Positions 4,090 to 48,965 of a stretch of 64,000 bases of DNA are shown in pieces; within the stretch, counting starts at the first letter, position 1, and every line of letters starts with the position of its first letter. A model generated the notes under the pieces. It saw nothing but the letters and a program-made list of their open reading frames with translations. It ran no database searches and was not told where the DNA came from. The stretch is from Ferruginibacter sp. (GTDB lineage: Bacteria > Bacteroidota > Bacteroidia > Chitinophagales > Chitinophagaceae), in NCBI GenBank assembly GCA_040006715.1, contig JBDTWL010000011.1, positions 3,728-67,727 of the forward strand. Reading direction: 5' to 3'. The translations under genes were made by a program, and so were the position numbers.

Positions 4090-5418
4090 ATGCAAAAAAC
4101 AACAGGGCCTGCGCTCAAACGGGAGATCGGAGCTTCGGCACTCGCTTTAAATGCCATTAACCTTACCATTGGAGCAGGCATTTTTGTTTTACCGGCGATC
4201 GTTGCGGAGAATCTTGGCCCGGCAAGTTTTGTTGCATATATCTCCTGCGGCGTTCTTGTTATTTTGATCATGCTATGTTTTGCTGAGGTAGGGAGCAAAA
4301 TCACCACTTCAGGAGGAGCCTATGCATATGTTGAAAAAGCATTTGGCCCATTGGCGGGCTTTCTGATCAATACTCTTTTCTGGTTTGGCTTTTGTTGTTT
4401 GGCAGACGCAGCTGTTATCAATGCACTCACAGACATGCTTGCAATTTGGTTTCCTGTTTTTTCCTTAACATATATCCGGGTCATTTTTTTTATTGCATCC
4501 TATGCCCTGTTATCATGGGTCAATATCCGTGGTGCAAAAGAGGGAGCTGTGTTTGCCGGTATAGCAACAATATTAAAATTAACACCGCTGCTGTTAATGA
4601 TCATCATTGGATTCTTTCATATATCCCCGGGGAACCTGGCAATAAAAACCTGGCCCGGGATATCAAGTATCGGTGATACTTCTCTTATTCTTTTTTTTGC
4701 TTTCATGGGAACTGAATCAGCTTTAAGTAACAGCGGGGAAATAAAAGATCCACAAAAAAACATACCTAAAGGGATCTTCTGGGGAGTTATGGGAGTATTG
4801 ATCATGTACCTCCTGTTACAATTTGTTTCCCAGGGAGTGATGGGCGACCAGTTGCCAAAATTTAAAGACGCTCCCTTGGCTGCAATGGCATTGAAGTTGA
4901 TCGGCCCGGTTGGAGGTACTATCATTTTAATTACCAGTGTGGTCTCTATGTTCGGAATGCTGAGCGGGGACGTTTTAGCAACTCCAAGGATCTTGTTTGC
5001 TGCCTCCAGGGATCAGTTGCTTCCCGGTTTTCTTGGGAAAGTACATTCAAAATATTCAACTCCTTACTGGTCAATTATTGTTTATAGTTTAATTGTAGTG
5101 CTACTTGCATCCAGTGGAGGATTCAAACAGCTGGCGGTCTTAGCCAGTTCATCCGTATTATTTATTTACCTGGCTGTTGTATTAGCAACGATCAGGTTAA
5201 GGTATAAAAAAGAAGTTGCAGAAAAGGAAGGTTTTAAAATACCGGGAGGATTAACAGTGCCGATACTTGCCATTTGCACGATCGGCTGGTTCTTATCTCA
5301 TATTACAAAAGACGAGATCAAAGGGTTTGCAATATTTTTTGTTCTGCTAACCCTTGTTTATTTTATCCGCAGGGAACTCAGGAAAAAATACATTCAAAAT
5401 ATGAACAATTTAAAATAA
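4090..5418 (+). CDS. APC-family amino acid permease
   Basis: TIGAGIF, GGAY and FAFMGTE motifs; about 12 hydrophobic segments. Confidence 0.9.
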   Translation: MQKTTGPALKREIGASALALNAINLTIGAGIFVLPAIVAENLGPASFVAYISCGVLVILIMLCFAEVGSKITTSGGAYAYVEKAFGPLAGFLINTLFWFGFCCLADAAVINALTDMLAIWFPVFSLTYIRVIFFIASYALLSWVNIRGAKEGAVFAGIATILKLTPLLLMIIIGFFHISPGNLAIKTWPGISSIGDTSLILFFAFMGTESALSNSGEIKDPQKNIPKGIFWGVMGVLIMYLLLQFVSQGVMGDQLPKFKDAPLAAMALKLIGPVGGTIILITSVVSMFGMLSGDVLATPRILFAASRDQLLPGFLGKVHSKYSTPYWSIIVYSLIVVLLASSGGFKQLAVLASSSVLFIYLAVVLATIRLRYKKEVAEKEGFKIPGGLTVPILAICTIGWFLSHITKDEIKGFAIFFVLLTLVYFIRRELRKKYIQNMNNLK

Positions 5419-5424
5419 TAAATC

Positions 5425-5739
5425 ATGAAATTGATCAAAACAATATTACTTGTAATTTTTGTTTCATTCCAAACAACTTCTTTTTCACAAAATACGGGGA
5501 AGGAAAGCTGTAAGATATTACGGGATTGCAGGCTTAAATACCTCGACATTGAGGATACAACTTCCTATGTTATTATTAAAGATACGGCCCATATAGAATA
5601 TCATGATGCCGGTAAATATTATATACGATCAACATTAAAATGGCTAAATGATTGCGATTATGATATGACCATGACAGAAATTACCATCCCCGGTTTTCCT
5701 TTTCACCCGGGAGACATCAGAGATGAAGAAACTTTATAG
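5425..5739 (+). CDS. Exported hypothetical protein, possibly C-terminally truncated
   Basis: Signal peptide, KWLNDCDY motif; stop lies 18 nt before the tRNA. Confidence 0.6.
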   Translation: MKLIKTILLVIFVSFQTTSFSQNTGKESCKILRDCRLKYLDIEDTTSYVIIKDTAHIEYHDAGKYYIRSTLKWLNDCDYDMTMTEITIPGFPFHPGDIRDEETL

Positions 5740-34450: not shown

Positions 34451-37400
34451 ATGGGGAAAGTGATATCGAAAAATAAGGAATCCGACAAAGATCTGCACCT
34501 CTCCCATTTCTCATTGGAAAATCTCCATGAAGCAGTATTCTGGATCGATTCCAGGTCACATATCTTCCAGGTAAATGATATGGCCTGCCAGATGACGGGC
34601 TATTCCAAAGAAGATCTTTTAAAAAAAATGGTTGCAGACCTTAACCCAACCAATACAATAGCAGATTTTGAAACATTCTGGAAAAAACTAAAAAAGGAAA
34701 AGAAACTTACCTTCGATTCACAGCATCGCCATAAAGAAGGACACTTGTATGATGTTGAGGTAACCGGCAATTTTATAGAATACAATGGCGAAGAATTTTC
34801 ATGCAGTATTGTAAGGGATATCCGTAAAAAAAAGATGGAAGAAGAATTGTTACGCATCGTTTCTGAAGCAACCTCGGGCGTAACAGGAAAAGATTTTCTT
34901 GTCGAATTAACAAAGAACATCTGCAAAGTGATCGGTATGAAATATTGTTTCGTTGCCGAATGTGCAGATAGTGCGAAAACACGCTTTCGCACTATTGTAT
35001 TTACTGATGGAGAAAAAGTAATGGACAATTTCGAATATGATGCAAAAGATTCGGCCTGTCAAATGATGCTGAAAGCTGTTCCCTATTTTTTGGCAGAAGG
35101 CGCACAGAAATTGTTTAAAGGAGCTACCGGGATCGAATCATATATCGGTGCTCCTATCTTAAGCCATATAAATGGTGAAGTATTGGGACATATAGCCGCA
35201 AGCGATCCCAAACCAATCAGCAATGAAAAAAACCTCACCGCCATACTTCAGATATTCGCAGCAAGGATCGGTGCAGAATTAGCAAGGATGCAGGCAGAAG
35301 ATGCCCTTGAATCAAAGAATAAAGAATTAAACGACCGGTTAAGTGAAATAGAATTATATAACAGTACTGTAAAAAACTTGCAGGACCAGGTTTTCTGGCT
35401 CGATGATAAAGGAAAGTTTATCAGGGTAAATGATGCTGTAAGCAAAATTTCCGGTTACTGTGTAGATGAATTGATGCAGATGACCGTATTTGAACTTAAC
35501 CCTTCCCTTACAAAAAAAGAATGGGAAAAAGGATGGAGGGAAACGAAGAAGCACGGCCAGCAAATAATAGAGACAGAACATCGTACAAAGCAAGGACAAT
35601 CATATCCTGTAGAAGTTACCAACAATTTCATGACCCATAATGCTGTTGAATATTTCTGTTCGTCTGTAAGAGATATCCGCAAGCGTAAAATGGAAGAAGA
35701 ATTGTTACGTACCATTTCCGAAGCAACATCAGCACTGGTTGGCCAGGATTTCTTTGAAGCGCTCACAGAGTATGTTACCGTTTCTCTTGGTGTAAAAACA
35801 TGTATAATCACAGAATGCACAGATGCAGATAAGACAAGGGTACGAACACTTGCCTTCACCAAAGACAGCAAGTTGCAGGAGAACATTGAATATGATATAG
35901 AAGGAACGCCCTGTAAACTTGTGATGGAAGGAAAGGGATCCGACATTTTCATTTCATCAGGTGTTGACAAAACCTATCCCAAAGAAGCCGGTTATGATTC
36001 TTATGTTGCCGTACCCATCTATAGTTCGTCAAACAATGATGTGATCGGCCATATCGCTGCACTTGATGATCATCCGATGACCAACGAGATGAATCAAACA
36101 TCTATCCTCAAAATTTTTGCTGCCCGTGCAGGAGCAGAGATCGACAGGATAAAAGCAGAAGAAAAATTAAAGATCGCCAATGCCGATCTAAAGGTTTTAC
36201 TTAAAGAAAGTGAAGAACGTTTCCGCGACCTGTTTGAAGAAGCTCCGATCGCTTATGTTCATGAAGGGCTCGATTCTAAATTTATCAAAGCCAACCGTGC
36301 AGCTTTGAGTATCCTTGGTGTGAGGCCCGATGAAGTTCCAACAACTTATGGAAAGACAATGGCACCTGATACACCCGATGCACAGCGCCGCATGAAAGAA
36401 GCTTTTGAATCAGTGGGACGAGGTACTGACACAAGTGGCGTGGTGCTTGAGCTAAGACGTAAAGATAATGGCCAACCGATCTGGATACAGTGGTGGTCGA
36501 ACCCTGATGTTGGGGGGCAATTCACCAGGACCATGTTCATTGATATAACGGATAAAGTGTTGATGGAACAGGAACAGGCAAGGTTGCAGGCGCAGAACCA
36601 ATACCTGCAGGAAGAAATTAAATACAATAACAATTTTGAAGAGATCGTAAGCAAGAGCAAGAATTTTCATAAGGTCCTGCAACAGATCGAACAGGTTGCT
36701 TCAACAAATGCAACAGTGTTGATCATGGGTGAAAGCGGTACCGGTAAAGAATTGATCGCACGGGCTGTTCACAATATCAGCAACCGGAGTAAAAGGCCAT
36801 TGGTAAAAGTGAACTGTGCTACCCTTCCCGCCAATTTAATTGAAAGCGAATTGTTCGGGCATGAGAAAGGGGCATTCACCGGTGCGATGGAAAGAAAGAT
36901 CGGACGTTTTGAATTAGCAGATGGCGGTACCATCTTTTTAGATGAGATCGGTGAACTTCCTGTAGAATTACAGGCAAAATTATTACGTGTATTGCAGGAA
37001 GGCGAATTTGAAAGATTGGGCAATCCAAGAACTATGAAAGTAAATGTAAGGGTGATCGCCGCCACTAACCGCAACCTTGAACAGGCCATTGAGAAAAAAG
37101 AATTCAGGGAAGACCTTTATTACCGTTTGAATGTATTCCCGATAACCTGCCCGCCTTTGCGTGAAAGAAAAGAAGACATTCCATTGCTTGTAAAACATTT
37201 TTTACAAAAACATGAACCGAGGGTTGGTAAAAAGATCAGCAATGTATCGCCCAAAGTAATGGATATACTGAATACTTATGATTGGCCGGGTAATATCCGT
37301 GAACTGGAGAACCTGATAGAAAGGGCAATGATCTTATGTCCTGCGAATACGCTGCAGGAAGGTACATGGCTGCCTGTTACTAAATTTACTACTTTAAACG

Positions 37401-37573
37401 GCAAAGCAAACCTGCAAAAATTAGATGATGTGGAAAAGGATCACATTATGGAAATACTGAAACAAACCAACTGGAAAGTAAGTGGTGAAAAAGGCGCTGC
37501 AAAAATACTCGGCCTGAATGCAACAACACTTGAAGCAAGGATGAAGAAATTGGGAATTAAAAGAGAAGGCTAA
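34451..37573 (+). CDS. Sigma-54 enhancer-binding protein, PAS-GAF-PAS-GAF-PAS-AAA+-HTH (FhlA-like)
   Basis: [40 protein letters not shown] and WPGNIREL motifs plus C-terminal HTH; no receiver domain. Confidence 0.95.
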
Positions 37574-41261: not shown

Positions 41262-41729
41262 TCAATGAAATATTTTTTGCCAGTTAGCATCAGCATGTTG
41301 CTTTAATGTGCTCTCATTCTTATTCCAGGATTTCAAAGTATTATTGAATAAGCGGTTGTAAAAAAGATAAAGCTTACCGGAAACTATCTTGAAGGTTTCG
41401 GGGTCAACATTTACTTTAGAACCATCATTTCCCATCGCATAAGCACACCATCCGCCATATTGTGGTTCATAAGCAGCAGGATTCTTTTTAAAGGCTTCTT
41501 TATTTTCAGCAGAAGAAAAACGATAACTGATCCCTTCATAAAAAACATTACCCAATTCTTTTTTCCCTTTTATCGCTTTTCCTTCCTTAAAATATGCAAC
41601 AGGATCATACCCCTGGATAGCGATGCCATCATCAAGGTTGAATTGGCTTTTACGAACCAGTGCATCCTGCGAAAATGCATTCAGTATAAATGTGCTTAGA
41701 ATCACAGTGAGGAAAGGCTTTATTCTCAT
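41262..41729 (-). CDS. Exported YHS-domain protein (paralog 1)
   Basis: GYDPVAYF, YRFSS.EN...F...P..YEPQYGGWCAYAM and KLYLFYN motifs; ATG 41729 gives a clean signal peptide and lies downstream of a -7 box. Confidence 0.92.
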   Translation of the reverse strand: MRIKPFLTVILSTFILNAFSQDALVRKSQFNLDDGIAIQGYDPVAYFKEGKAIKGKKELGNVFYEGISYRFSSAENKEAFKKNPAAYEPQYGGWCAYAMGNDGSKVNVDPETFKIVSGKLYLFYNRLFNNTLKSWNKNESTLKQHADANWQKIFH

Positions 41730-41777
41730 TTTATGAAATTTTATAGAACAAATATAGGCTGCCCCCGAACCATGGGT

Positions 41778-41793
41778 TGTCGGGCAAATGACA
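41778..41793 (-). promoter_or_regulatory. Crp/Fnr-type box of the YHS-DoxX-...-ATP-grasp operon
   Basis: Minus strand TGTCA-TTTGCC-CGACA; canonical TATATTTG ends at 41749, 29 nt away. Confidence 0.8.
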
Positions 41794-41858
41794 TAAACGA
41801 AGAAAAGTTTAAAACGGATGCAAGCGTTCATAATCAAGGTCAAACTCCCAATTTTTAC

Positions 41859-41893
41859 TCCCAACATTTTGTGAGATTCCCAATAGGTTGGGA
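41859..41893. promoter_or_regulatory. Tandem dyads, candidate enhancer (UAS) for the sigma-54 activator
   Basis: TCCCAA-CATT-TTGTGA (41859-41874) and perfect TCCCAA-TAGG-TTGGGA (41878-41893). Confidence 0.55.
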
Positions 41894-41994
41894 GAAAATT
41901 CGAAGTCGATTTTTCAAATGCCAATTTCTAAATATTTTTTTTACCGTTTACTGGTAAGGCTTTCAGGGCAGTATAAGGTAGTGAAAAAAAATTC

Positions 41995-42009
41995 TGGCAC
42001 AGCGGTTGG
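41995..42009 (+). promoter_or_regulatory. Candidate sigma-54 -24/-12 promoter
   Basis: TGGCAC-AGCGG-TTGG versus consensus TGGCAC-N5-TTGC; only the -12 C differs. Confidence 0.6.
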
Positions 42010-42040
42010 CTATATACGGGCAAATATTTAATCCCGGAAA

Positions 42041-42364
42041 ATGAATAAGATGATCACAAAAGCAAATTTTAAGAAAGAAGTAGCAGAAAGCAATACCCTG
42101 TCATTGGTTCAATTTAAAACAGACTGGAATGGAGCTTCACAGATCGTATCTATGATATACGATGACCTGGCAAGATCATATAAAGGCATCGCAAATTTTC
42201 ATACAGTAGATTATGAAAATGAGCTGGCCCTGGTGAACGAGTATGGTGTAATGGAAGTCCCTACGATCCTTTTTTTCAAAGGGGGGATGATGATCGATCA
42301 TGTTGTGGGGCTGGTTCCAAAAAATGCGCTGATATCGAAGATCGAAAATCATTTATCTAAATAA
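42041..42364 (+). CDS. Thioredoxin-fold protein lacking all cysteines
   Basis: LVQFKTDWNGAS replaces WCGPC; cis-Pro motif EVPTILFFKGG retained; no Cys in 107 aa. Confidence 0.88.
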   Translation: MNKMITKANFKKEVAESNTLSLVQFKTDWNGASQIVSMIYDDLARSYKGIANFHTVDYENELALVNEYGVMEVPTILFFKGGMMIDHVVGLVPKNALISKIENHLSK

Positions 42365-42397
42365 ACAAATTTTTAAAAACTGTTAAATATCAAAACT

Positions 42398-43078
42398 ATG
42401 TACAACGAACTAAAATATGTTTACCTGAAAAGCCATCCACTTTTCGCAAACATGTCTGAAAAACAAGTTAATGATGCTTGTGAGCTGATGAAAGTAAAAA
42501 CCGTGTACCGTGGGGAGACATTTGATTATGGTGACGGGGATTATAGCAAAATATATCTTTTAATAAAAGGTAAGATCAAGATCACGCTTTGTGATGATAT
42601 GGACAATGAGTTGATCAAAGATATCCTTACAGCCCCGGATATTTTCGGTGACCTGAGCCTTGATGGCCGTCCATCAAGCGATGAATTTGCACAGGCATTG
42701 ATGGCAAATACAGTTGTATGTTTTTTCAATGCAACCGATTTCAAGAATATCCTCCAGGATAATGTTATGCTTGCCATGAATTATGCAAATACAGTGAATA
42801 ACAAACTCAAGAAACTGGAAAGCAGGCATTCAGACCTGGTATTCCATGATGCAAAGGCAAGGCTGATCCGTTTTATCAAGAACTGGGCAAAAACAGATGG
42901 CAACCGTATCGGCGATAAAATAATCCTGAACAATTATTTAACCCATAGTGATATAGCAGGTGTTATAGCTACTTCACGGCAGAGTGTGAATGTATTGTTC
43001 AATGAACTCCGTGATGCCGGTATGCTGATGTATGACAGGAAGAGGATACAGCTGAATGATATGATCGCTTGGAATTGA
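42398..43078 (+). CDS. Crp/Fnr family transcriptional regulator
   Basis: cNMP-binding-like barrel (IYLLIKGKIKI, DIFGDLSL) and HTH LTHSDIAGVIATSRQSV. Confidence 0.95.
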   Translation: MYNELKYVYLKSHPLFANMSEKQVNDACELMKVKTVYRGETFDYGDGDYSKIYLLIKGKIKITLCDDMDNELIKDILTAPDIFGDLSLDGRPSSDEFAQALMANTVVCFFNATDFKNILQDNVMLAMNYANTVNNKLKKLESRHSDLVFHDAKARLIRFIKNWAKTDGNRIGDKIILNNYLTHSDIAGVIATSRQSVNVLFNELRDAGMLMYDRKRIQLNDMIAWN

Positions 43079-43236: not shown

Positions 43237-44043
43237 ATGCAACAAAAATTACAGGACCAGGTGGCTATTGTAACAGGTGCCAGCAGTGGCATTGGAGCCG
43301 GATGCGCCATGGAACTTGCCAGGGCAGGGGCAAAAGTGATCGTGAACTACCCCATTCCCCAGGGAAAAGAAATGGCAGAGAAAGTGGTGGAACAAATTGT
43401 GGCTGATGGCGGCAGGGCCATATCATACAAATGCGATGTGAGTAAAGAAGATGAGGTAAAACAAATGTTTGCAGACACGATCAAAGAATTTGGTACTGTT
43501 GATATCCTTGTTAACAATGCAGGGCTTCAAAAAGATGCTCCATTCACCGAAATGACATTGGATCAATGGAATTTTGTTTTAGCTGTAAATTTAACAGGGC
43601 AATTTCTTTGTGCAAGGGAAGCCATTAAAGAATTTTTACGCCGTGGAGTAAATGGCAAATCAAAAAGTGCCGGCAAGATCATTTGTATGAGCAGTGTGCA
43701 TGAAGTTATTCCATGGGCTGGACATGCAAACTATGCTGCAAGCAAAGGCGGCGTTATGCTGATGATGAAAACGATCGCACAGGAATTTGCGCCAAAGATG
43801 ATCCGCATTAACAGCATTGCCCCCGGTGCTATTGCAACTCCCATCAATCATGATGCATGGGATACACAGGCCCACCTGCAGGAATTATTAAAACTGATAC
43901 CGCAAAAAAGAGTCGGGCAGGTTGATGATATTGGTAAAGCAGCGGTTTGGTTGGCAAGTGATGACAGTGATTACGTAAATGGAACTACCTTGTTTGTTGA
44001 TGGGGGAATGACCTTGTACCCGGGATTTGAAGACAATGGATAA
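43237..44043 (+). CDS. SDR oxidoreductase, glucose 1-dehydrogenase-like
   Basis: TGASSGIG, NNAG, SSVHEVIPW, YAASKGG and GTTLFVDGGMTLYP motifs. Confidence 0.88.
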   Translation: MQQKLQDQVAIVTGASSGIGAGCAMELARAGAKVIVNYPIPQGKEMAEKVVEQIVADGGRAISYKCDVSKEDEVKQMFADTIKEFGTVDILVNNAGLQKDAPFTEMTLDQWNFVLAVNLTGQFLCAREAIKEFLRRGVNGKSKSAGKIICMSSVHEVIPWAGHANYAASKGGVMLMMKTIAQEFAPKMIRINSIAPGAIATPINHDAWDTQAHLQELLKLIPQKRVGQVDDIGKAAVWLASDDSDYVNGTTLFVDGGMTLYPGFEDNG

Positions 44044-44045
44044 AG

Positions 44046-44193
44046 GCCCATCTACCTCCCCGAAGCCCGCCCGGCTGAATGCCGTTCGGACGGGGGGAGA
44101 AAAAGGAGAAGATTGATGCGATCCTTTACAAGATATTAAATTTAATAATCCCATTTCACGTACCCTTCCCTTTGGGAAGGGGTTGGGGATGGG
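44046..44193. repeat. REP/MITE-like inverted pair with a nested palindromic insert
   Basis: GCCCATC..CCTCCCCGAAG[CCCGCCCGG...CCGTTCGGACGGG]GGGAG on the left; CCCTTCCCTTTGGGAAGGGTTGGGGATGGGC on the right. Confidence 0.7.
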
Positions 44194-44206
44194 CTAAAAT
44201 AAAAAC

Positions 44207-46870
44207 ATGAACGCCGAACAACAAAGATTGCAACAACCCGGTTGGAAAAAGTGGGGGCCTTATTTAAGTGAGCGTCAATGGGGCACTGTAAGGGAAGATT
44301 ATAGTGAGAATGGAAGCGCCTGGGATTCTTTCTCACATGATGATGCACGCAGCCGTGTATATCGCTGGGGCGAAGATGGCATTGCAGGCATCAGTGATGA
44401 CCAGCAACACATTTGTTTTGCACTCGCTTTGTGGAATGGAAAGGATCCTATTTTAAAAGAAAGGTTGTTCGGCTTAACGGGCAATGAAGGCAATCATGGT
44501 GAAGATGTAAAGGAATTGTATTACTATTTGGATAATACACCTACGCATTCATACATGAAGCATTTGTACAAATACCCGCATGCGGAATTCCCTTATGCAG
44601 ACCTGGTAAATACAAATAAGCATCGTTCAAAAACCGAAGGCGAATATGAATTGCTTGATACGGGTTTATTCAATGATGGAAAATATTTTGATATAACCAC
44701 TGAGTATTCAAAGAATGCTACAGAAGACATTTGTATCAGGATCACGATCAGTAACCGTGCGAATGAAGCCGCTTATATTGCCCTGCTGCCAACACTTTGG
44801 CTGCGCAACCTGTGGAGCTTTGGCCTGATGCATGAGAAACCAAAAATGTATATCAAAGAAATTGGAGAAACCCTCGGGGAAGTAATAGTAGATCATTACT
44901 GGGAAGGTAAATATCATTTTTATTTTGAAAAACCTACGCATACCCTGTTCACAGAAAATGAAACGAATACAGAACGCTTGTATGGGAAGCCGAATCCGTC
45001 ACCCTATGTAAAGGATGCTTTTCACACGGCAGTTCAGCAAAACCGTTTTGATTGGCTGGAAGAAAAAAAGGAAGGAACAAAGTTTGCACCGATGTATGAA
45101 TTCAATGTAGCAGCCAATTCAGCTGTTGTTGTAAAACTCAGGTTGAGCAAACATCATGTTGAAACCGGTCCTTTTGATGCTTCATTTGATAAAATATTTA
45201 CAGATCGCATCACTGAAACAGATGTGTTCTATAAAGAGATAACAACCGCAACAGGCCAGGACCAGGTAAATATCCAACGCCAGGCATTTGCCGGAATGTT
45301 GTGGAGCAAACAATATTACAATATCGATATTCCACGTTGGCTGAATGGTGATCCCGGTCAGCCTGCACCACCGGAAAGCCGGAAGAAAGGCCGAAACCAT
45401 CAATGGCATTCATTGAACAATGAAGACATTATTTCAATGCCCGACAAATGGGAATATCCGTGGTATGCCGCATGGGACCTGGCTTTTCATTGTGTGCCAC
45501 TTTCAATGGTAGATCCGCAGTTTGCAAAGGACCAGCTCATTTTATTCTTACGTGAATGGTATATGCATCCAAATGGGCAGTTGCCTGCATACGAATGGGC
45601 ATTCGGTGACGTGAACCCACCCGTACATGCCTGGAGTTGTATGCAGGTATATAAGATCGATAAGCATAAAACTGGTAAAAGCGATATTAACTTCCTGAAA
45701 AGAGTATTTCAAAAACTGCTGATCAATTTCACCTGGTGGGTGAATAGAAAAGATTCAAAAGGCAATAATGTTTTTGAAGGAGGTTTTCTTGGATTGGATA
45801 ATATTGGTGTATTTGACAGGAGCAGTGCAATACCTGGCGGCGGAATTTTAGAACAGGCTGATGGCACAAGCTGGATGGCCATGTATTCTTTGAATATGCT
45901 GGAAATGGCTTTGGAAATTTCCCAATATGATGACAGTTATGAAGACGTGACCACTAAATTCTTTGAGCACTTTGTTTATATAGCCGAATCATTAAACAAA
46001 ATGGGCTCTGATTGGACAGGCAGCTGGAATGATGAAGAAGGATTCTTTTATGATGTGCTCGAATTACCGGGTGCAAACTACATCCCGCTAAAAGTAAGGA
46101 GCCTCGTGGGTTTGACAACATTGTTCGCTGTATTCGTTTTGAAAAAAGACCTGTTGGATAAAGTTCCGGATTTTCACAACCGTTTAAAATGGTTCCAGAA
46201 ATACAGGGAAAAGAACAATCAATACCTGGTGATCGAAGAATTGAATGATCATGATGATATATTGTTATCACTTGTACCAAAAGCAAAGCTTGAAAAATTA
46301 CTGAAAGCATTGCTGGATGAAAATGAATTTTTATCAACAGGTGGCATACGTTCAATTTCAAAAATTCATGAACGTGGTTATTCGGTGAATATTGAAGGTC
46401 AGGAATTCGGATTGGAATATACTCCTGCTGAAGGAACAACTTCTTTATTTGGCGGTAACAGTAATTGGCGTGGGCCGATATGGATGCCGATGAACTATTT
46501 GATCGTACTGGCATTGCAGCAATATGGAGAATATTACAAGGATGAAGCGTTGATAGAATACCCAACCGGTTCAGGGAACAAGATGATGATAAACGAGATA
46601 GCAAATAAAATTGCAGAACGTTTGATATCAATCTTTGAAAAAGATAAAAACGATCAGCGTCCTGTAAATGGAACAGAAAGCATTTACCAGGAAAATGAAC
46701 ACTTTAAAGATCTAATTTTATTTTATGAATATTTTCATGGCGATAACTCAAGAGGAGTTGGAGCATCTCATCAAACAGGCTGGACTGGTGTTGTAGCAGA
46801 ACTGATAAACAGGGTCAATACTCCACAAACAGCAAAGAAGAAAAAAATCAGGGAAGAAATTATTATGTAA
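44207..46870 (+). CDS. GH63/MGH1-like glycoside hydrolase
   Basis: WGPYLSERQWGTVREDYS, MPDKWEYPWYAAWDLAFH, FLGLDN and GASHQTGWT motifs. Confidence 0.92.
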   Translation: MNAEQQRLQQPGWKKWGPYLSERQWGTVREDYSENGSAWDSFSHDDARSRVYRWGEDGIAGISDDQQHICFALALWNGKDPILKERLFGLTGNEGNHGEDVKELYYYLDNTPTHSYMKHLYKYPHAEFPYADLVNTNKHRSKTEGEYELLDTGLFNDGKYFDITTEYSKNATEDICIRITISNRANEAAYIALLPTLWLRNLWSFGLMHEKPKMYIKEIGETLGEVIVDHYWEGKYHFYFEKPTHTLFTENETNTERLYGKPNPSPYVKDAFHTAVQQNRFDWLEEKKEGTKFAPMYEFNVAANSAVVVKLRLSKHHVETGPFDASFDKIFTDRITETDVFYKEITTATGQDQVNIQRQAFAGMLWSKQYYNIDIPRWLNGDPGQPAPPESRKKGRNHQWHSLNNEDIISMPDKWEYPWYAAWDLAFHCVPLSMVDPQFAKDQLILFLREWYMHPNGQLPAYEWAFGDVNPPVHAWSCMQVYKIDKHKTGKSDINFLKRVFQKLLINFTWWVNRKDSKGNNVFEGGFLGLDNIGVFDRSSAIPGGGILEQADGTSWMAMYSLNMLEMALEISQYDDSYEDVTTKFFEHFVYIAESLNKMGSDWTGSWNDEEGFFYDVLELPGANYIPLKVRSLVGLTTLFAVFVLKKDLLDKVPDFHNRLKWFQKYREKNNQYLVIEELNDHDDILLSLVPKAKLEKLLKALLDENEFLSTGGIRSISKIHERGYSVNIEGQEFGLEYTPAEGTTSLFGGNSNWRGPIWMPMNYLIVLALQQYGEYYKDEALIEYPTGSGNKMMINEIANKIAERLISIFEKDKNDQRPVNGTESIYQENEHFKDLILFYEYFHGDNSRGVGASHQTGWTGVVAELINRVNTPQTAKKKKIREEIIM

Positions 46871-46874
46871 GGAA

Positions 46875-46954
46875 TTTCACGCAAAGTATCAAAGAAATAC
46901 AAAGCTGCAAATACTCTTTGCGTCTTTGCGAGGACTTTGCACCCTTGCGTGAAA
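46875..46954. repeat. Intergenic inverted repeat with short internal period
   Basis: tttcacgcaaag...caaag...caaag / ctttgcgtctttgcg...ctttgcacccttgcgtgaaa. Confidence 0.7.
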
Positions 46955-46967
46955 TAAAAATAATATC

Positions 46968-48965
46968 ATGCTAAAGAAAGACAAATCAGTTTTACAAAAC
47001 TTCAGCGAAGCCACTCAATTAGAATGGCTGGAGACAAATGGCCTCGGCGGCTGGAGCAGTTCATCCATTATTGGATGCAATACCAGGCGATATCATGGGT
47101 TGCTTGTAGCTGCAACCGTTCCTCCCGCAGAACGGATGAACCTTGTATCCAAACTTGATGAAACAATTGTTGTAAATGATCAAAGGTTTGAACTGGGAAC
47201 AAACAATTATGGAAATGCTATAAACCCGAACGGATACAATTACATCAGGTTATTTACGAAAGACCTTTTTCCGGAATGGATCTATGAAGTAGATGGCATC
47301 CAGTTAAAAAAGACCATTGCCATGGTTCATGGAGAAAATACAACACTGATCGTCTATGATGTTGTAAGGGCTTCGAAAACATTTTCGTTAGAACTATTAC
47401 CATTACTATCTGTAAAAGGTTATCATAGTTTGATGCATGCAAACAATGACATCGATCGTGAAGCCACATTTAACAATAATATTTTTAAAACAAAAACATA
47501 TGAAGGAACCCCGGATATATTCATCCAGGTTCCTGGTGCTGATTATAAAGCAAACCCCAACTGGTTTTATAATTTTAACTACAGCGTAGAACAATACCGT
47601 GGCCAGGATTTTATTGAAGACCTTTTCAACCACGGAACATTATCTGTACAGTTAAAGAAGGGAGATTCGATCGGTATCATTATATCAACTGAAGACCCTG
47701 CAGGTAAAGATGCACATGAGTTGCTGGCAAAAGAAAGTTTAAGAAGACAATTATTATTGAATGATCAACCCAATGATAAAACAGTTCAACAACTTGTGTT
47801 GGCTGCCGACCAGTTCATTGTAAAACGCGGTGAAGATCTTAAGACGGTCATCGCCGGTTATCACTGGTTCACTGATTGGGGAAGGGATACGATGATATCC
47901 TTGCCAGGATTGTGTTTGAGCACAGGTCGTTTTGAAGATGCGAAGAAGATACTTGCAGCATTTGCTGCATCCGTAAGCCAGGGTATGCTGCCAAACCGTT
48001 TCCAGGACAATGGTGAAGCCCCGGAATACAATAATGTGGATGGAACACTCTGGTATTTTATTTCCATACATAAATATTTACAGGCAACAAATGATAAAAA
48101 ATTTGTGCTGAATGAAATATTGCCTGTACTTAAAGATATCATTGACTGGCATCACAAGGGAACAAGATATCATATCCATGATGAAGCCGATGGTCTATTA
48201 TACTCAGGAGAAGAAGGCGTACAACTTACCTGGATGGATGCTAAGGTTGGTGATTGGGTTGTAACTCCAAGGTCAGGTAAGGCTGTAGAGATCCAGGCAC
48301 TTTGGTATAATGCTTTGTGTATCTATGGCGAATTACTTGAATTAAATAAAGAAAAAGCTGAAGCAACACATATCAATGAAAAGGCTGGATTGGTAAAAAG
48401 AAGTTTTTTGCAACAATTCTGGAATGCTGAGAACAATTGCCTGTATGATGTAATAGATGGGAACATGAAAGACGATAGTATTCGCCCAAACCAGTTGTTT
48501 GCTATTAGCCTCCCCTATCCTGTTATTGATGGCAAACAAGCAAAAGCCGTTTTAAAGATCGTAGAAGAAAAATTATACACGCCTGTAGGTTTAAAAAGTT
48601 TACCGGCTGATGATGGTCGGTATGTAGGTATTTATGGCGGCGACCAAATGCACCGGGATTCATCTTACCACCAGGGAACAGTGTGGAGCTGGTTACTGGG
48701 CGCTTATATTGATGCTGTGATGAAAGTTGAAGGCAAAAGATCGAAAGCAAAAAAGATAATCGATGCGTTTAAATACCACCTGGAAGAAGGTTGTATCGGG
48801 AGTGTTTCAGAAATATTTGATGCAGATGCGCCACATCATCCACGTGGTTGTATTGCACAGGCATGGGGCGTTGCGGAAGTATTGAGGGTAATAAAAGAAT
48901 ATGATTTGTCTTCTGAAAGAAATAAAATAAAAAAGATCAAAGCAGCGATGGCCGAGCCTGCATAA
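46968..48965 (+). CDS. Amylo-alpha-1,6-glucosidase (glycogen debranching enzyme family)
   Basis: EWLETNGLGG, RRYHGLL, IAGYHWFTDWGRDTMI, LTWMDAK, YHQGTVW and QAWGVAE motifs. Confidence 0.93.
   Translation: MLKKDKSVLQNFSEATQLEWLETNGLGGWSSSSIIGCNTRRYHGLLVAATVPPAERMNLVSKLDETIVVNDQRFELGTNNYGNAINPNGYNYIRLFTKDLFPEWIYEVDGIQLKKTIAMVHGENTTLIVYDVVRASKTFSLELLPLLSVKGYHSLMHANNDIDREATFNNNIFKTKTYEGTPDIFIQVPGADYKANPNWFYNFNYSVEQYRGQDFIEDLFNHGTLSVQLKKGDSIGIIISTEDPAGKDAHELLAKESLRRQLLLNDQPNDKTVQQLVLAADQFIVKRGEDLKTVIAGYHWFTDWGRDTMISLPGLCLSTGRFEDAKKILAAFAASVSQGMLPNRFQDNGEAPEYNNVDGTLWYFISIHKYLQATNDKKFVLNEILPVLKDIIDWHHKGTRYHIHDEADGLLYSGEEGVQLTWMDAKVGDWVVTPRSGKAVEIQALWYNALCIYGELLELNKEKAEATHINEKAGLVKRSFLQQFWNAENNCLYDVIDGNMKDDSIRPNQLFAISLPYPVIDGKQAKAVLKIVEEKLYTPVGLKSLPADDGRYVGIYGGDQMHRDSSYHQGTVWSWLLGAYIDAVMKVEGKRSKAKKIIDAFKYHLEEGCIGSVSEIFDADAPHHPRGCIAQAWGVAEVLRVIKEYDLSSERNKIKKIKAAMAEPA

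Follow-up and report, generated by a model that had tools for sequence, protein, structure and literature searches.

Our results indicate that the operon formed by a thioredoxin-like gene (trx) and a gene for a Crp/Fnr-family regulator (crp) is very probably driven by a sigma-54-dependent promoter with upstream activator sites. The operon lies in a window of 64,000 nucleotides (the whole stretch of DNA that was analysed) belonging to a Chitinophagaceae assembly of 107 contigs and 3.95 Mb (G000), where a divergent intergenic space of 310 bp has a YHS-domain gene on one side and the trx-like/crp pair on the other. The parts of this arrangement are present, conserved, placed with a fixed geometry, syntenic and co-occurring in the family. 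A sequence-only reading of the window had called a sigma-54 enhancer layout here, and this call is supported by the conserved -24/-12 element, the fixed dyads, the presence of rpoN, the syntenic gene for a GAFTGA-bearing enhancer-binding protein (EBP) and the lack of an alternative promoter; when window positions 41400-42500 were read again, all the coordinates that it had given were correct to the base. The features of the locus are the following, in window positions:

34451-37573, plus strand: sigma-54 EBP of 1040 aa, with PAS-GAF-PAS-GAF-PAS, AAA+ and Fis-type HTH (HTH_8) domains, 4.3 kb upstream
41262-41729, minus strand: YHS-domain gene of the YHS-DoxX operon, divergent from the trx-like gene
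41749-41756, minus strand: TAtaTTTG, read from the sequence, which from the TAnnTTTG consensus of Bacteroidetes -7 boxes we take to be the -7 box of the divergent YHS-DoxX operon; outside the sigma-54 promoter
41778-41793, no strand assigned: CRP-type box TGTCGggcaaaTGACA, about 42 bp upstream of the predicted YHS start
41846-41851, plus strand: third TCCCAA half-site, 13 bp upstream of dyad 1, at about -172
41859-41874, no strand assigned: dyad 1, TCCCAAcattTTGTGA, one mismatch, centre at about -154
41878-41893, no strand assigned: dyad 2, TCCCAAtaggTTGGGA, perfect TCCCAA-N4-TTGGGA, centre at about -135
41894-41915, no strand assigned: imperfect palindrome GAAAATTCG-aagt-CGATTTTTC, arms matching at 8/9 positions
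41938-41966, no strand assigned: central element TTTTTACCGTTTACTGGTAAGGCTTTCAG, a degenerate copy of the consensus cTGAAACCCTTTACnGTAAAGGGTTTCAG, centre at about -69
41984-41994, plus strand: run of eight A followed by TTC, abutting the -24 element upstream; A at 54-75% per position in 74 loci
41995-42014, plus strand: sigma-54-type promoter TGGCACagcggTTGGCTATA (core TGGCACagcggTTGG, 41995-42009), with GG at -25/-24 and TTGG at -15 to -12
42041-42364, plus strand: Cys-less thioredoxin-fold protein of 107 aa, operon gene 1, ATG at 42041
42398-43078, plus strand: Crp/Fnr-family regulator of 226 aa, operon gene 2

Conservation and geometry of the upstream region

The trx-like/crp pair is patchily distributed. 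A Crp orthologue (54-89% identity in Chitinophagaceae) was found in 21 of 300 sampled genomes of the family, in 16 genera that include the window's own, and in this sample the trx-like gene nearly always stands directly upstream of crp. A scan of species-representative genomes added 80 loci, 79 of them with the trx-like gene. The check that the sequence-only reading had proposed, a search for its dyads in orthologous trx-crp upstream regions, gave a clear answer: the tandem dyads and TGGCAC-N5-TTGG recur in 74 distinct loci, which were aligned without gaps and anchored on TGGCA. In this alignment the information content is high only at the dyads, the central element, the A-run and the promoter, and it falls to about zero between them.

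Dyad 2, which we propose as the main upstream activator site, is perfect in 53 of the 74 loci; from its centre to the T of TGGCA downstream there are 106-110 bp in 73 of them. Dyad 1 is placed 19 bp further upstream in 69 loci, with a left half that is 91-97% conserved and a weaker right half, and the third TCCCAA half-site is found, with at most one mismatch and an offset of 13-15 bp, in 38. The centre of the central element is 41-43 bp upstream of the same T in 72 of the 74. Dyad-symmetric sites are thus found within the 80-200 bp upstream that are expected of activator sites, at about -135 and -154, and their position holds within 2 bp in 73 of the 74 loci. Such a spacing, constant to about 2 bp across intervening DNA that is free to drift, is the pattern predicted by a face-of-helix constraint. 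A compact variant of the locus (L135, MKTZ01000014.1, about 2330-2500) has the EBP gene, the dyads, the central element, the sigma-54 promoter and crp, and no trx-like gene; each of its two intervals is shorter by about 11-12 bp, close to one turn of the helix.

Two further observations concern single genomes. In one locus (L059, G243:C22) a long CTTTCC/CTCCCG low-complexity tract stands directly in place of the usual region of the dyad 1 left half. Two genomes of the window's genus, G023 (L002/L043) and G001 (L003/L044), carry an operon copy that is more divergent (Crp 56% identical) than the copies of other genera (up to 77-89%; compare L046-L049), and both of them keep the dyads and the promoter. 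This divergence suggests, as far as the sequences go, an old paralogy or a horizontal transfer of the module.

The dyad signal is real because of its arrangement and conservation, and not because of motif count. Taken singly, the dyad shows no enrichment in the window (5 matches versus 4.6 expected when two mismatches are allowed), and at up to one mismatch the genome holds 10 matches versus 7 for the control. The perfect dyad is the sole copy in the 3.95-Mb genome, and carrier genomes have a single tandem dyad each, always at the trx/crp promoter. A genome-wide dyad regulon was rejected, given a unique perfect dyad and near-matches at control level. The imperfect palindrome at 41894-41915, which the sequence-only reading had listed as a further element, falls in columns without conservation across the orthologous upstream regions; it was discarded as a functional element and is probably a product of chance.

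The predicted -24/-12 promoter

Over the 74 loci the promoter consensus is AAAAAAATTC-TGGCAC-gccgg-TTGGCTATA. The GG-N10-G spacing and TGGCAC are found at 94-100%, values that reflect in part the anchoring pattern, by which TGGCAC and TTG were largely set in advance. The pattern left the fourth -12 base and those beyond it free, and at that base G is found in 77%, A in 17% and C in 5% of the loci, followed by C (85%), T (85%) and A (82%). Counted from the GG at -25/-24, the transcription start is predicted near 42021. With a single exception (29 nt) among 73 anchored loci, the start codon is reached 38-51 nt beyond the T of TGGCA, which gives a leader of about 20 nt.

Canonical sigma-54 promoters carry GG at -25/-24 and GC at -13/-12, 10 bp apart. 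The window promoter has TGGCAC and the G of the -12 doublet at the correct spacing, and a G replaces the C. For this reason its assignment had been called uncertain, a doubt that appears unfounded in this lineage, where G is far more frequent than C at this base in the 74 loci and where three further sigma-54-like promoters of the genome also do without the -12 C: those of dnaK (TGGCACaatgaTTGT, 30 nt before the ATG, G000:C3:48582), grpE (TGGCAAaatgtTTGA, G000:C22 about 19700) and kdp (TGGCATatgctTTGG, G000:C4:6086), the last beside another EBP gene. The dnaK and grpE promoters follow the pattern TGGCAC/TGGCAA-N5-TTG(T/A). Judging by these sequences, promoters of this type in the lineage can apparently dispense with the canonical -12 C. 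Sigma-54-like promoters are also seen at G000:C18:32021 and G000:C53:10408, and across the examples of this genome the -12 element is TTGT, TTGA or TTGG; among the intergenic matches to TGGCA[CT]-N5-TTGN, the four final bases are about equally common.

The genome has the sigma factor itself, with one PF04552 match for rpoN (181.6 bits, G000:C23) in the profile search. A recent general survey of sigma-54 regulons describes chaperone genes of Bacteroidota as sigma-54-dependent, from predicted promoters (PMC12316311), and we found no paper linking Chitinophagaceae with sigma-54 promoters. A sigma-70 or Bacteroidetes-type -7 promoter for trx was rejected: the TAnnTTTG box is absent in 74/74 loci searched from -60 to +70, and neither a sigma-70 match nor a -35/-10 pair was found upstream of trx.

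The enhancer-binding protein

The product of the gene at 34451-37573 has the features of a true EBP. Its AAA+ domain matches PF00158 with 253 bits, and a Walker A motif (GESGTGKE) and an intact GAFTGA are present in the translation. It is one of seven true EBPs encoded in the genome; it reaches no NCBIfam equivalog cut-off, and the best NCBIfam similarities of its AAA+/HTH part are to FhlA, NifA and NorR.

When 20 kb were fetched from each of 12 genera, an EBP orthologue (65-79% identity) was found adjoining the trx/crp operon in 10, and the two exceptions have neither the trx-like gene nor the EBP. In the family the EBP orthologue is present in 19, the Crp orthologue in 21 and both in 18 of 300 genomes, counts that are not independent since the carrier genomes are phylogenetically related, though they span many genera. 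In two of the three Crp-only genomes (G131 and G160) the promoter is missing along with the EBP and the trx-like gene, and the third is a fragmented assembly. In G023 and G001, which belong to the same genus, the EBP orthologue is not adjacent to the operon and lies about 18 kb off or on another contig. The tandem pattern TCCCAA-N13-TCCCAA-N4-TTGGGA, with at most one mismatch, occurs in 15 of the 19 EBP-positive genomes, once in each and at the trx/crp locus; in 4 of the 281 EBP-negative genomes there are matches too, which are one-strand, non-palindromic and look like chance.

We propose, from these sequence comparisons, that the EBP is the protein that binds the dyads. The dyads would be the EBP-specific site because the conserved HTH of this protein needs one and because the central element is also found in genomes without the EBP.

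A second system in another genome (L164 in G085, G085:C1:4564000-4574500, 5417-5575) bears on this assignment. Here a gene for a second activator, EBP2, is divergent from trx2, which is followed by an AraC-like gene, DoxX and crp2. The promoter is retained (CTGGCACctggtTTGGATATAA) and the central element stands at unchanged distance. In place of the dyads there are two 19-bp-spaced repeats, TCCTGAaataTAGTGA and TCCTGAtattTCGTGA, centred 108.5 bp upstream of TGGCA, and these differ from the dyads in having the form TCCTGA-N4-TnGTGA. The recognition helix of EBP2, TTLESRMKKLEI, has an A-to-S and a G-to-E change and is alone in this among 17 EBP C-termini; the remaining 16 helices have one form in 15 cases and another in one. 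Repeats that vary together with the activator, next to an unchanged central element, are what one would expect under the model, the covariation of HTH and dyad coming from a single paralogous system.

The central element at about -69

In the layout first proposed, the DNA between dyads and promoter served as a bendable AT-rich spacer. It is indeed AT-rich (GC 0.31 versus 0.40 for the window), and it also holds a specific conserved element, at about -69, that had been overlooked. The window copy has a position weight matrix score of 22.5. A relaxed form of the cTGAAACCCTTTACnGTAAAGGGTTTCAG pattern is found in 287 of 301 genomes of the family, usually in 2-15 copies per strand versus 0-2 for the reversed control, and in the genome of the window about 25 sites exceed a matrix score of 14 (versus 4 in the shuffled genome), among them a near-perfect copy at G000:C1:275135-275163. 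The element is also seen at loci L167-L188, and in some genomes it stands in short intergenic arrays.

With this distribution, the motif could be REP-like, or it could be bound by a global DNA-binding protein. Its two arms show neither covariation nor compensatory pairing, and conservation is far stronger in the right arm, AAAGGGTTTCAG, than in the left one, so that a protein site is likelier than a hairpin. No match was found for it in Rfam and no terminator was found at it; an RNA or DNA hairpin or a terminator was rejected on these grounds, together with the lack of arm covariation and the good conservation of the right arm alone. The element was also rejected as the site of the EBP, since it is present in 287/301 genomes with or without EBP and since a sigma-54-like motif follows none of 23 copies examined in other genomes. 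Looping assisted by IHF at an E. coli-type site was not borne out either: the E. coli IHF consensus WATCAANNNNTTR occurs in 0/74 loci within the 100 bp upstream of TGGCA, and a different conserved element holds that position. We infer that the element is probably bound by a generic, family-wide architectural factor other than the EBP, which would assist looping.

The operon products and the CRP-type boxes

The trx-like protein has WNGAS in the window instead of the WCGPC active site, and this copy has no cysteine. The first active-site Cys is absent in all the trx-like orthologues that could be read, 41 of 79, which have W[SNRK]G[ATPSV][CS][QH] (L084-L163); the second Cys is retained by most of them, and the window copy has neither. 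These sequences suggest that the protein acts beside the Crp-like regulator as its monothiol or non-redox partner. Downstream, at window positions 43237-48965, are genes for an SDR, an MGH1/GH63-like hydrolase and a glycogen debranching enzyme, whose synteny with the module is kept in most genera; an extra gene stands between crp and the SDR gene in several genera and is absent from the window.

A palindrome of the CRP type, TGTCA-N6-TGACA, is frequent in this region, with 9 copies in the window at up to one mismatch versus 2.3 expected, among them 2 of the 3 perfect copies of the genome. Its window positions include 34348, 41778, 50312, 51225, 53336 and 55562. The box is found in 47 of 73 orthologous regions versus 10 after shuffling, and the copy at 41778-41793 is a likely site for the Crp-like product of the operon itself. 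Taken as the target of this product, the TGTCA-N6-TGACA family supports a proposed cascade from the EBP to the Crp-like protein and from there to the neighbouring genes. One box lies 103 bp upstream of the ATG of the EBP gene, where feedback would be possible; a box is present upstream of the EBP gene in just 2 of 10 other genera checked.

A model for the switch and its alternatives

We propose that the tandem dyads at -135 and -154, with the optional half-site at -172, constitute an upstream activator sequence to which the PAS/GAF EBP encoded at 34451-37573 would bind through its Fis-type HTH. A signal sensed by the PAS/GAF modules would lead to oligomerization of the EBP on the dyads, from where it may contact the sigma-54 holoenzyme by looping of the DNA, probably aided by the -69 element and the A-tract through a generic architectural factor, and ATP hydrolysis would then open the promoter. 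The Crp-like product probably acts next on TGTCA-N6-TGACA boxes about 42 bp upstream of the ordinary promoters of the neighbouring genes. The binders, the transcription start and the looping in this scheme are our deductions from the parts and their spacing. A wider reading, which we put forward tentatively and hold to be unlikely as a whole, joins all of these elements: the -69 element would be the site of an undescribed IHF-analogue present throughout Chitinophagaceae, with several to dozens of sites in each genome; the recruitment of this protein here, in a fixed helical phase, would bring the PAS/GAF activator onto the sigma-54 polymerase by looping, and the unit would stand at the top of an activator-to-Crp cascade over a glycogen/redox/stress island, possibly feeding back on the activator gene.

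The dyads could belong to another protein. In this alternative the promoter is still sigma-54-dependent, and a Crp/Fnr-type protein, the product of the operon or another member of this protein family, binds the dyads as an autoregulator or modulator, the EBP binding elsewhere or acting with no specific site. TCCCAA-N4-TTGGGA has the 16-bp inverted-repeat (6-N4-6) format that Crp/Fnr proteins use; variants such as TCCCAAtattTCAGGA, and the TCCTGA-N4-TnGTGA repeats of G085, resemble the FLP-type site, CCTGA-N4-TCAGG, and by co-occurrence the dyads are linked no less closely to crp than to the EBP. We nevertheless consider this quite improbable, as the distinct TGTCA-N6-TGACA box, clustered at about -42 of neighbouring ordinary promoters, fits the Crp-like protein better, and as positions -135 and -154 are typical of EBP sites and useless for a polymerase contact of the Crp type. 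The conserved HTH_8 of the EBP, moreover, needs a site, and the sole other conserved element is generic to 287/301 genomes.

It is still less probable, and in our view very unlikely, that TGGCAC-N5-TTGG is no sigma-54 promoter and that another sigma factor's promoter is used, with the dyads as an ordinary repressor or activator operator. The missing canonical -12 GC would fit with this, as would the conserved CTATA(A/T) after TTGG, superficially like a -10 hexamer; the GG-N10-G spacing and TGGCAC at 94-100%, the lack of both a -7 box and a -35/-10 pair, the tight association with the EBP gene and the other sigma-54-like promoters of the genome, equally devoid of the -12 C, all speak against it. 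Chance or non-functional repeats, for which it could be said that a single dyad is not enriched in window or genome, have next to no probability and are effectively refuted by the conservation at fixed spacing in 74 loci of many genera, with unconstrained flanks. A sigma-54 promoter activated by the EBP from the tandem dyads is thus the reading that we retain.

What is the significance of this locus? Sigma-54 regulation is almost unstudied in Chitinophagaceae, and the locus offers a fully specified and testable module, with a PAS/GAF activator subfamily, a predicted 16-bp site, a TTGG -12 element and a strict three-part geometry. Its output is a transcription factor, which would make it the entry to a two-tier circuit over the glycogen-debranching, GH63, YHS/DoxX and oxidoreductase neighbours. 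Promoter predictors that require the -12 GC will miss promoters in this lineage. The carriers of the operon are Chitinophagaceae from soil and water, and cultured ones include Niastella vici, N. caeni, Terrimonas pollutisoli, Lacibacter sp. MH-610 and Flavitalea sp. BT771.

Comparison with known systems

As read from the sequence, the architecture is the textbook enhancer layout and the switch is of a known kind. As in the NtrC/glnAp2 system, two adjacent dyad-symmetric activator sites stand more than 100 bp upstream of a -24/-12 promoter, and both activators combine a GAFTGA-bearing AAA+ domain with a Fis-type HTH. In contrast, the NtrC site is TGCACC-N5-GGTGCA and not TCCCAA-N4-TTGGGA, its centre-to-centre distance is about 32 bp instead of 19 bp, sensing is by a receiver domain and not by PAS/GAF modules, and the -12 element here is TTGG. 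NifA/nifH, NorR/norV and FhlA, systems with GAF-type EBPs, are those to which the AAA+/HTH part of the EBP is nearest in NCBIfam (below equivalog cut-offs). The nifH and norV promoters have an IHF site between the upstream site and the promoter, where this locus has its conserved -69 element; unlike an IHF site, that element is partly palindromic and multicopy throughout the family, and the 74 loci are devoid of the E. coli IHF consensus. With XylR/Pu and DmpR/Po the locus shares a dedicated EBP encoded near an apparently single target promoter, the tandem dyad being single-copy per genome, although the target here is a Crp/Fnr-family factor with a redox-dead thioredoxin fold, in a two-tier cascade, and not a catabolic operon. 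The predicted chaperone sigma-54 promoters of Bacteroidota (PMC12316311) come from the same phylum, and dnaK and grpE carry promoters of this type here as well. What seems new in this system, judging from these comparisons, is the activator subfamily together with its proposed site, a TTGG at -12 that is typical of the lineage, a central element unlike IHF sites, and an output made of a Crp-like regulator and a redox-dead thioredoxin.
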